Below are positions 61,820-63,690 of a DNA stretch of 64,000 bases, piece after piece. Position 1 is the stretch's first letter. Every line of letters starts with the position of its first letter. Below the pieces are notes generated by a model. That model saw only the letters and a program-made list of their open reading frames with translations. It made no database searches and was not told where the DNA came from. The DNA comes from an uncultured Gammaproteobacteria bacterium. GTDB taxonomy: Bacteria > Pseudomonadota > Gammaproteobacteria > SZUA-140. A program made the translations under genes and the position numbers. The stretch spans positions 14,402-78,401 of the forward strand of contig CALZHD010000012.1 in the NCBI GenBank assembly GCA_945787155.1. The letters run 5' to 3'.

Positions 61820-62497
61820 TTACTGAACCTTCAGTAGCTCAACATCAAACATCAACGTTGCATTCGGACCGATATCACCACCTGCACCACGTGAGCCATA
61901 GGCCAGATCTGAAGGGATGAAGAGCTGCCACTTGGCACCTTCTTTCATCAATTGCAGCGCCTCAGTCCAGCCTTTGATAACCCCGCCCACAGGGAAGGTG
62001 GCGGGCTCACCACGACGATGAGAACTATCAAATTCCTGACCATTAATCAGCGTGCCACGATAGTGAACCGAGACGGTATCTTCTGCGGTTGGCTGCTTGC
62101 CAGTGCCCGCCGTGATGACTTTATACTGCAACCCACTTGGCAGCTCGGTAACACCTTTTTTGTTCTTGTTCTCAGCCAGGAATTTCACGCCTTCCTCTTT
62201 ATTAGCATTTCCCGCTAACTCTTTTTTGGCCGTCTCACGTTTCTGATAATCAGCAAACAACGTCTGCATTTCCTCTACCGTCAATTGTGGCTGCTTGTCA
62301 GAGAGAATATCTTTGATCGCCATCCCCACTGATCCCGCATCAATATCCATACCATTACGTTTCAGGTCCTGACCAATCTGGACCCCCACCGCATAGCTAA
62401 ATTTCTGTTTTTCACTCTCAAGCCCACCATCAGCCGCAGACGCCACAGATATAGATGAAGCCATCAACAGCGATGTAAAAAGAACCCTGGATTTCAT
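61820..62497 (-). CDS. FKBP-type peptidyl-prolyl isomerase (FkpA/FklB/Mip family)
   Basis: Signal peptide, KFSYAVG, LPSGLQY, VHYRGTL, FDSS, VIKGWTEALQLM, IPSDLAYG, FDVELL. Confidence 0.93.
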   Translation of the reverse strand: MKSRVLFTSLLMASSISVASAADGGLESEKQKFSYAVGVQIGQDLKRNGMDIDAGSVGMAIKDILSDKQPQLTVEEMQTLFADYQKRETAKKELAGNANKEEGVKFLAENKNKKGVTELPSGLQYKVITAGTGKQPTAEDTVSVHYRGTLINGQEFDSSHRRGEPATFPVGGVIKGWTEALQLMKEGAKWQLFIPSDLAYGSRGAGGDIGPNATLMFDVELLKVQ

Positions 62498-62553
62498 ATC
62501 TTTCCTCGTAATAATAAGTGTTGTGTCTTGCGCTCAAACACGATTATGCAGAT

Positions 62554-62582
62554 AAAAAAAAGGGATAGGATTTACCTACCCC
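62554..62582 (-). terminator. Strong intrinsic terminator
   Basis: Minus strand GGGGTAGG-TAAAT-CCTATCCC-T8. Confidence 0.85.
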
Positions 62583-62657
62583 CATCTAGCGTGCACTCCG
62601 TGCTGAGTCTCCATTTCCGTTACTCTGAACTTGTTCTTCCATGAGAAGCCTTTGATA
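62554..62657 (-). ncRNA. Candidate CsrA/RsmA-sequestering small RNA (about 100 nt)
   Basis: Lies between a consensus-like promoter and a strong terminator. Four ANGGA motifs sit in predicted hairpin loops. Confidence 0.55.
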
Positions 62658-62663
62658 GACATA

Positions 62664-62692
62664 GTTATACTCCCCCAGACTACAGCCGTCAA
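62664..62692 (-). promoter_or_regulatory. Sigma70 promoter
   Basis: TTGACG-17 nt-TATAAC. The -35 lies within a 10-bp-period direct repeat, GTCAAATC x2 (62688-62705). Confidence 0.7.
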
Positions 62693-62874
62693 ATCCTGTC
62701 AAATCGGCGCTTTCAGACTACTTTCAAATGCCAAAAGCACCTACTCAGAACAAGCATATTTACCCTGCCATTCCAGCCAGACAATATTTTTGTGGTCAAA
62801 TACCAATCCCATTTGTACACTCCACAGACATAACTGTAGACCACAACATCAACAAGGCAATCAAGGAGGTAATC

Positions 62875-63690
62875 ATGACAAAAAAGACGTTTGTTGGAAC
62901 ATTCTGCAAAGCCTCACTTCTCGCATGCTGTGTCACAACTAATGCAACCGCTGCCACCGCCCCTTCTGTTGATGAGATCATCAACCAGTGCTACTACAAA
63001 TACGCAGGGGATGACCAGCGCTCGCACATGCAGATCACCCTCAAAGCGGCCGGCGGAAAATCACAAGTGAGCGAATATACCCGACTGTGGAAGAATTACA
63101 GCGGCCGCGGCGGTGTCGTCGACAAGGTACTCCTCTTCACCGATATTCCACTCAAAGACAGAGGACTGGCCTTTATGCGCTGGGGACACACCGGTGACAG
63201 CGGCCAGGCAACCGAACAGTGGATCTACCTGCCCGATCTAAGAAAAGTACGCCGCCTTACCCCGCGTGATCCCGAGACCAAAGAGTGGATCATCAAAGAT
63301 GAAGACCTGCGACTGCGCGAACCCCACGAGGATCATCACACCTTTGTCGGTGAAAAATCATCTGATGGCAATGCCTACTATGTGGTTGAGTTCAAGCCGA
63401 GCGACGACCCGGTCTACAGCAAGCGCACCTTCTGGTTCAACAAAAAGGATAATGCCGACGAGTGCTCACTGTACAAGGTCGACTTTTACGATAAACGCGG
63501 AGAAAAGACCAAACAGCAGTTCATCGAATGGCGTCGCAAGGGCAAAGCGTGGATATGGGATAAGGTCGTGATCGAAGATACTAACAGCGACGCCTACATT
63601 CACTACGACATGAAAAAAGTTGAGGTCAATGTTGGACTGGATGATGCGCTATTCACACAGCGCTCGATGCAAAAAGGATACTCTCAGTAG
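62875..63690 (+). CDS. Outer-membrane lipoprotein-sorting (LolA-like) protein
   Basis: GGAGG RBS, signal peptide, KVLLFTD, RGLAFM, EQWIYLPDLRKVRR, LYKVDFYDKRG, LDDALFTQRSM. Confidence 0.8.
   Translation: MTKKTFVGTFCKASLLACCVTTNATAATAPSVDEIINQCYYKYAGDDQRSHMQITLKAAGGKSQVSEYTRLWKNYSGRGGVVDKVLLFTDIPLKDRGLAFMRWGHTGDSGQATEQWIYLPDLRKVRRLTPRDPETKEWIIKDEDLRLREPHEDHHTFVGEKSSDGNAYYVVEFKPSDDPVYSKRTFWFNKKDNADECSLYKVDFYDKRGEKTKQQFIEWRRKGKAWIWDKVVIEDTNSDAYIHYDMKKVEVNVGLDDALFTQRSMQKGYSQ

Follow-up and report, generated by a model that had tools for sequence, protein, structure and literature searches.

Does the intergenic DNA upstream of a Mip/FkpA-like FKBP gene encode a small RNA of the Csr/Rsm type, as a first-pass annotation of this locus had proposed, or does it serve the gene beside it? 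The window, meaning the whole stretch of 64,000 nucleotides that was analyzed, lies on contig C12 of a 3.19-Mb assembly (G000; 210 contigs, 94.6% complete). The FKBP gene (61820-62497, minus strand) encodes 225 amino acids with the Pfam domains FKBP_N and FKBP_C (7e-32 and 4e-27), and the N-terminus of the protein is a hydrophobic segment resembling a signal peptide. On the far side of the 377-nucleotide intergenic region (62498-62874) is a divergent LolA-like gene (62875-63690, plus strand). A glutaredoxin gene and a DnaJ-related gene form the outer flanks of this pair. We found that the intergenic region holds a conserved noncoding unit that is linked to the FKBP gene, in a genome that encodes CsrA; transcription, CsrA binding, the mode of action in trans or in cis, and read-through are what we infer from its sequence.

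The features of the element all read on the minus strand. A promoter is predicted from a −35 hexamer TTGACG (62692-62687) and, 17 nucleotides past it, a −10 hexamer TATAAC (62669-62664), as read in the first-pass annotation. The −35 hexamer is the same in all 14 distinct full copies recovered from the genus, as is GAGTATAACT at the −10, and a diverged copy from another genus (genome G014) carries TTGACT and TATAAA. Our consensus promoter scan did not call this promoter because its −10 ends in C and not in T. The start inferred from the −10 (±2 nucleotides) and the end of the U tract delimit a predicted small RNA of about 104 nucleotides (62554-62657). It finishes in an intrinsic terminator identified by the terminator scan (62583-62554), which reads GGGGGTAGG-TAAAT-CCTATCCCT followed by T8. 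The T8 tract had been recognized before; the stem, previously counted as 8 bp, has 9 bp and encloses a loop of 5 nucleotides. A repeat overlapping the −35 had also been likened to a CpxR/OmpR-type box. The direct repeat TTGAC-N5-TTGAC is present (62702-62687), with TTGACA at 62702-62697 as its upstream copy, but that copy is peculiar to the window: in the alignment, the relatives carry TTTGYT there, with TTTG alone common.

Two further observations concern the DNA around the promoter. The −10 is without the canonical last T in all 15 copies, and a G-rich GGGRGAG spacer just upstream of it is kept within the genus. Together these may be signs that something other than plain sigma-70, be it another sigma factor or a regulator, acts here. 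We rejected a sigma-32 or plus-strand promoter behind the GGGRGAG spacer, since the spacer is kept at one of the two copies in genome G002 (copy b) despite a different divergent neighbor. About 120 nucleotides upstream of the −35 (~62790-62810, minus-strand reading), a CAAAATAATRTGG-like stretch is kept in most genus copies, while the LolA-like/RNA intergenic DNA surrounding it is otherwise poorly conserved. This stretch may be part of the promoter of the LolA-like gene.

Homologues were sought with BLAST, two covariance models (R1 and R2) and an exact-pattern scan. Seven of the 10 genus genomes carry the element, G002 in two copies, and so do 12 metagenome contigs, giving the 14 distinct full copies. 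The records bearing it are metagenome-assembled genomes from hydrothermal and subseafloor samples, and their labels read Gammaproteobacteria, Thiotrichaceae, Chromatiaceae or Chromatiales. Scores were 107-111 bits for the window and 101.9-129.5 (R1) or 105.8-122.7 bits (R2) for the genus copies. The copy in G014, which belongs to another genus of the same family, was spotted by eye upstream of an FKBP orthologue and scored 59 bits with R2 (E = 1e-8). Across 36 genomes of the family and order and 400 genomes of the class, R1 and R2 gave no credible match beyond the genus (g1) and G014, and the nine remaining genera of the family and order yielded no credible copy. The remaining candidates were discarded: matches in G333, G041 and G008:C54 were bare terminators or fragments, a pattern match in L069 fell by chance inside a 704-amino-acid ORF, a match in L064 covered part of the model only, and a second weak match in L070 (975-1076) covered only a terminator-like region. 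With a range this narrow, one genus plus one genome of another, the element is therefore not a core part of the Csr system.

Within the alignment, conservation sets in sharply at the −35 and finishes at the U tract. Identity is 0.47 upstream of the −35, 0.82 in the promoter, 0.79 in the RNA body and 0.88 in the terminator, followed by 0.66 in the spacer and 0.74 at the start of the FKBP coding sequence; the RNA body is thus more conserved than the 5′ coding region of the gene next to it. Inside the body, conservation follows the GGA motifs and not a reading frame: the GGA columns are unchanged in 12 of 12 cases across 14 sequences, compared to 21 of the 61 other body columns (Fisher p = 1.9e-5), and the enrichment stands at p = 3e-5 when G014 is added. 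The G014 copy retains CAUGGAAG, AACGGA, a GGA displaced by 1 base and GCAUGGAAUGC, and little else in it can be aligned.

The four GGA triplets were found at the positions given for them earlier (62640-62638, 62618-62616, 62612-62610 and 62599-62597), each in an A-N-GGA context (AUGGA, ACGGA, AUGGA and ACGGA) and with spacings of 22, 6 and 13 nucleotides. Motif 1 is AUGGA within CAUGGAAG (62638-62642), and its GGA is unchanged in all 15 sequences. Motif 2 is ACGGA (62616-62620); AACGGA is likewise unchanged in 15 of 15, in the context UAACGGAA in the 14 genus copies and CAACGGAU in G014. Motif 3, AUGGA in an R-U-GGA-R setting (62610-62614), keeps its GGA throughout the genus and is shifted by 1 base in G014 (GGGGGAG). 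Motif 4 sits in the hairpin GCA-CGGAG-UGC (62593-62603), whose three outer pairs are kept in 14 or 15 of the 15 sequences. At the fourth position, the pair varies among C-G, U-G and U-A, and 3 sequences lack pairing there. We take the CACGGA of motif 4 to resemble an RsmE/hcnA-type site.

Each GGA had been described as lying in a predicted loop, which is true only in a loose sense. Pairing in the 15-sequence alignment is kept at 73% in hairpin 1 (UCU/AGR), 73-83% in hairpin 2, 93% in hairpin 3 and 97.5% in the terminator. However, the ensemble unpaired probabilities of GGAs 1 to 4 in the window are 0.25, 0.84, 0.68 and 0.98, and among homologues the accessibility of the GGAs runs from 0.01 to 0.99, with inconsistent predicted folds. 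Motif 2 is the only one steadily predicted to be open (unpaired 0.65-0.99 within the genus). For the three hairpins and the terminator together, 88% of cells can pair versus 43-61% in slid controls, a comparison biased toward structure because the structure was taken from the window's own sequence. Double-sided changes were seen in four pairs of the 15-sequence alignment, one each, with no hairpin showing more than one and hairpin 3 showing one; in the terminator stem, an A-U pair has become G-C in G014. RNAalifold gave steady support to hairpin 3 and the terminator alone and counted zero double-sided changes within the genus, and the window RNA folds no better than shuffled versions of it (z = −0.6). 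On these models, the RNA resembles a purine-rich platform of loose structure, in which one small conserved hairpin (GCA-NGGAN-UGC) and a strong terminator stand out.

We examined the genome for the other components of a Csr system. A single copy of CsrA is encoded (G000:C96; PF02599, 90.9 bits), and every one of the 10 genus genomes has a CsrA. Over 60 residues, the protein of G000 shares 82% identity with E. coli CsrA, and its N-terminal 44 residues are nearly identical. Also encoded are Hfq, with 88% identity to its E. coli counterpart, and a UvrY/GacA-like regulator, with 55%. The Rfam models for CsrB, CsrC, RsmX, RsmY and PrrB_RsmZ gave no match to the 701 nucleotides around the element even at an E value of ≤10, and an Rfam scan of the window at gathering level returned two tRNAs and otherwise no match. 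The first-pass annotation had seen no GacA box, and we agree: the GacA-type box TGTAAGN6CTTACA had 0 matches at ≤3 mismatches within 1.5 kb on each side.

Clusters of at least four ANGGA motifs within 80 nucleotides number 36 on both strands of the 3.19-Mb genome, and 8 of these are mostly noncoding; given this rarity and the conservation of the whole unit, the element is no mere chance pattern. Among the other mostly noncoding clusters, at least two, and possibly three, belong to CsrB-like or RsmZ-like RNAs. The strongest, on contig C18, marks a CsrB-like RNA of about 270 nucleotides, whose ACAAGGAUGU-type repeats supply at least 12 GGA; it scores 24.6 bits with the Rfam CsrB model (E = 5.7e-4), short of the gathering threshold. 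In tandem after it comes an RsmZ-like RNA of about 105 nucleotides with five GGA (PrrB_RsmZ, 18.3 bits). Both are unannotated (C18 ~26510-25830, minus strand; L071:2003-1344), each has a separate terminator and a TGTAGGAAT half-box 150-200 nucleotides upstream, and the tandem locus is kept in at least four other genomes of the genus (G001, G003, G004 and G006). A third noncoding GGA cluster, on contig C124 (362-427, minus strand; L072), reads aacaaGGAtaaGGAggtgacaaGGAcagg...GGA and has no Rfam match at an E value of ≤1; it may be a further CsrA-binding RNA or leader. Since the genome already has canonical sponges, the candidate RNA would, if it is a sponge, therefore be an extra, differently regulated one of low capacity. 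The original description as a Csr/Rsm-type small RNA is thus upheld insofar as the element is unannotated, noncoding, organized from a predicted promoter to a terminator and conserved at its GGAs in a genome with CsrA, but it has no Rfam match and the canonical RNAs lie elsewhere.

How does the element compare with RNAs that are known to bind proteins of this family? The canonical sponges RsmX, RsmY, RsmZ, CsrB and CsrC (RF02144, RF00195, RF00166, RF00018 and RF00084) are likewise noncoding, with a promoter of their own, as is predicted for the element, and an intrinsic terminator; in them too, repeated A(N)GGA is the only strongly conserved part, and a CsrA homologue is encoded. The element differs in having four motifs, a count at the bottom of the range for a sponge, where the family has 5-22, and in lacking both a model match and a GacA/UvrY box. 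Moreover, presentation of its motifs in hairpins is poorly supported, and the genome's own sponges are on another contig. RsmV and RsmW of Pseudomonas aeruginosa are minor, GacA-independent RNAs that sequester RsmA/RsmF and are without a GacA box. The element resembles them in being small, in having few GGA sites and no GacA box, and in coexisting with canonical RsmY/RsmZ-type sponges. It differs in showing no similarity by sequence or Rfam model, in reaching about half the 192 nucleotides of RsmV and in being strictly tied to a downstream FKBP gene, and its CsrA binding is a prediction. McaS of E. coli is a dual-function small RNA of 95 nucleotides that binds CsrA via GGA loops. The element is similar to it in its comparable size, few GGA motifs and U-tailed terminator, but it has no homology to McaS, and short-word BLAST found no base-pairing targets in the genome.

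Our preferred reading, which we put forward as possible and hold tentatively, is that the element specifies a small Gac-independent CsrA-binding RNA of the RsmV/RsmW kind and that read-through of its terminator also feeds the FKBP gene. The RNA would be the product of a discrete gene, about 104 nucleotides long, that has a sigma-70-type promoter of its own (TTGACG-17-TATAAC) and stops at a strong intrinsic terminator. The four A(N)GGA motifs would account for its function, one of them lying in a hairpin of 3-4 bp and the rest in purine-rich RNA with weak structure. At these motifs, the RNA would most likely bind CsrA dimers, at most two per molecule. It would be of the RsmV/RsmW/McaS type and operate alongside the genome's own canonical CsrB-like and RsmZ-like RNAs. 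Part of the transcripts would probably pass the terminator and yield FKBP mRNA whose leader bears the GGA sites. Such read-through is suggested because the gene is within 60 nucleotides and no sigma-70 promoter was seen between them.

CsrA binding appears to be the most economical mechanism for the GGA conservation because the motif type fits, CsrA is encoded and no part of the body is as conserved as the GGAs. This reading is favored by the retention of promoter, motifs and terminator in 15 copies and by the rarity of ANGGA clusters in noncoding DNA of the genome. That the RNA is a discrete one is favored by the compensatory change in the terminator together with the lack of an antiterminator, and by an RNA that stayed intact beside a frameshifted FKBP gene in G002 (cassette a, below). 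The RsmV RNA of P. aeruginosa is a working sponge with four consensus sites (bioRxiv 10.1101/315341), which counts for a four-site sponge. Several results weigh the other way. There is no match to an Rfam Csr/Rsm family, the sites are only four and have U or C at the −1 base as opposed to the ACAAGGAUGU of the genome's own CsrB-like RNA, and both structure and GGA accessibility are inconsistent among homologues. The missing last T of the −10 in every copy also counts against our preferred reading, and so does the fact that the element is never found apart from the FKBP gene, which fits a role in cis at least equally well.

This linkage is strict. In all 15 cases, an FKBP orthologue in the same orientation lies downstream of the RNA, at about 60 nucleotides in the genus and about 130 nucleotides in G014, while the upstream neighbor varies: a LolA-like gene in the genus, a polysaccharide deacetylase gene in G014 and a co-oriented gene of 339 amino acids at G002 copy b. 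G002 has two copies of the RNA-FKBP unit, duplicated as a whole. The two cassettes are 4 kb apart on the same strand of L054 (NVTY02000029.1; 770-1570 and 4826-5610). In the one adjoining the LolA-like gene (cassette a), the FKBP gene has a 1-nucleotide deletion at about codon 192, either a frameshift or an assembly error, and the RNA is intact. With respect to the neighbors, most genera of the family have the polysaccharide deacetylase gene (MYHHFGE motif) in divergent orientation next to the FKBP gene (L032-L047; in G014, L075 271-1380, minus strand). The deacetylase gene is the ancestral divergent neighbor, and the LolA-like gene in the window's genus reflects a rearrangement in which the RNA-FKBP pair was kept together.

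The linkage speaks for the alternative that we regard as somewhat unlikely but the best placed of the rivals, namely, that the element acts in cis as the 5′ leader of the FKBP message, an idea already raised in the first-pass annotation as an attenuated leader. In that case, the FKBP gene would be transcribed from the promoter at 62692-62664, the terminator would act as an attenuator, possibly a regulated one, and the short RNA would be a by-product. The GGAs, along with the GGA of the Shine-Dalgarno (SD) region, would be sites for CsrA or another factor that sets read-through, translation or stability of the FKBP mRNA. The 15 of 15 co-oriented copies, 60-130 nucleotides from the gene in three neighborhoods, and the joint duplication in G002 agree with this. 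Adjacency at 60 nucleotides, however, by itself makes co-inheritance likely, and FKBP orthologues are kept without the element in nine other genera. In G001, G005 and G007, the RNA, the FKBP gene and the DnaJ-related neighbor are all absent; this co-absence is uninformative because the DnaJ-related gene is missing too and the region is perhaps unassembled.

We then inspected the interval between the RNA and the gene. The spacer from the terminator to the FKBP start (62498-62548, minus strand; identity 0.66) contains the SD sequence GAGGA at 62507-62503, and a GGA is found within the SD region of 13 of the 14 genus copies, as a leader bound by CsrA would have it. Neither the promoter scan nor an eye check of the alignment revealed a sigma-70-like promoter in this spacer, which also speaks for a leader. 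Right after the U tract, on the other hand, is an ATCTG (62549-62553, minus strand) that is shared by 12 of the 14 genus copies. In a genus without the RNA, an ATCTG(A/C)TACCATAGCA box occurs at the same distance, 56-58 nucleotides before the FKBP ATG. The gene's own start signals may therefore persist there, with ATCTG as a possible promoter or operator, and this stands against the leader reading; a weak or non-sigma-70 FKBP promoter around ATCTG is conceivable. Related boxes were noted elsewhere, with TACCATAGC recurring in another genus and CATCATAGC in G014 (loci compared: L036-L038 and L042). A sigma-E-type FKBP promoter at ATCTG was tried and rejected, as its −35 would lie within the variable loop of the terminator and no clear consensus emerged from the DNA upstream of the genome's own rpoE.

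The terminator argues further against an attenuator. It is strong (9 bp plus U8) and conserved, and neither RNAalifold nor the alignment revealed a conserved antiterminator pairing. The only complementary segments, UUUCUCAU and AUGAGGGG, show no covariation: the partner AUGAG varies freely, whereas CUCAU is fixed, and the 3′ partner is poorly conserved. No part of the RNA varies more than the segment between hairpin 3 and the terminator. Both CsrA action at terminator-bearing leaders and titration of CsrA by leaders have precedents: among the CsrA-targeted leaders are the Legionella thi leader and gap operon, with CsrA titration or termination control (PMC5338858). The element is like such leaders (Salmonella fim 5′ UTR, E. 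coli pgaA, Legionella thi/gap) in its same-strand upstream GGAs, internal terminator and SD GGA; it is unlike them in that its terminator is strong and has no visible alternative fold. The earlier suggestion of an attenuated leader thus agrees with an element never found apart from the FKBP gene, but not with the lack of a conserved antiterminator.

We also considered a trans-acting small RNA unrelated to CsrA, a reading that we think unlikely. Such an RNA would pair with targets in the Hfq-dependent manner through the seed UAACGGAARUGGAA or would be the ligand of a different RNA-binding protein. Its anatomy would be that of enterobacterial small RNAs, with its own promoter, a length of about 100 nucleotides, a terminator and a U tail able to bind Hfq. 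The Hfq encoded in this genome, 88% identical to that of E. coli, is consistent with this, as is a conserved core of 17 nucleotides that is predicted to be single stranded. However, short-word BLAST of the RNA against the genome gave matches at chance level, the longest being 12-mers with E values of ~10. In addition, conservation is punctate, centered on four separate GGAs and not on a contiguous seed.

It is highly improbable that the region functions at the level of DNA, as operators or promoter of the FKBP or LolA-like genes with incidental look-alikes of a promoter and a terminator: the divergent intergenic position would suit this and repeated RYGGAR motifs could in principle be protein-binding half-sites, but the terminator stem shows a compensatory change beside a fixed U8, conservation runs from the −35 exactly to the U tract, the motif spacings (22, 6 and 13 nucleotides) have no helical phasing, and the orientation to the FKBP gene is held when the divergent neighbor changes. 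A 28-amino-acid ORF does open at ATG 62662, with GGGGGAG 9-10 nucleotides upstream, but the suggestion that the element encodes this peptide is refuted by the comparative data, in that the ATG is missing in 5 of the 14 genus copies (ACTAC.., ACTATA..), 1-2-nucleotide indels break the frame among copies, the ATG and putative SD are inside the promoter and hence untranscribed from it, and none of the shorter internal ORFs is conserved.

Taken together, we favor a discrete small RNA with some read-through over a pure leader, and then over a CsrA-independent small RNA. One specific extension of the preferred reading would unite the sponge with the leader. In this dual-output unit, which we consider quite unlikely, a single promoter would give rise both to a CsrA-titrating small RNA and to a read-through FKBP mRNA, encoding a periplasmic Mip-like prolyl isomerase, with the same CsrA sites in its leader, making the element sponge and target at once.

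The element is a plausible candidate addition to the CsrA-binding small RNAs, with an unusual fixed partner in the Mip-like chaperone gene. Given the narrow clade and evidence confined to sequence signals, its general importance is moderate. Should it fail to bind CsrA, it would still be a cleanly delimited, conserved orphan small RNA or leader with no Rfam family. If it does bind CsrA, it would constitute a lineage-specific, Gac-independent input to the Csr system in uncultured marine and hydrothermal Gammaproteobacteria and a compact four-site example of how such RNAs originate and persist. We know of no case of CsrA control of a Mip/FkpA-type FKBP gene, and the coupling to such a chaperone gene would, if true, connect Csr with envelope protein folding in a way not reported before. 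If the dual-output unit is also true, envelope protein folding would be wired directly into the Csr network.
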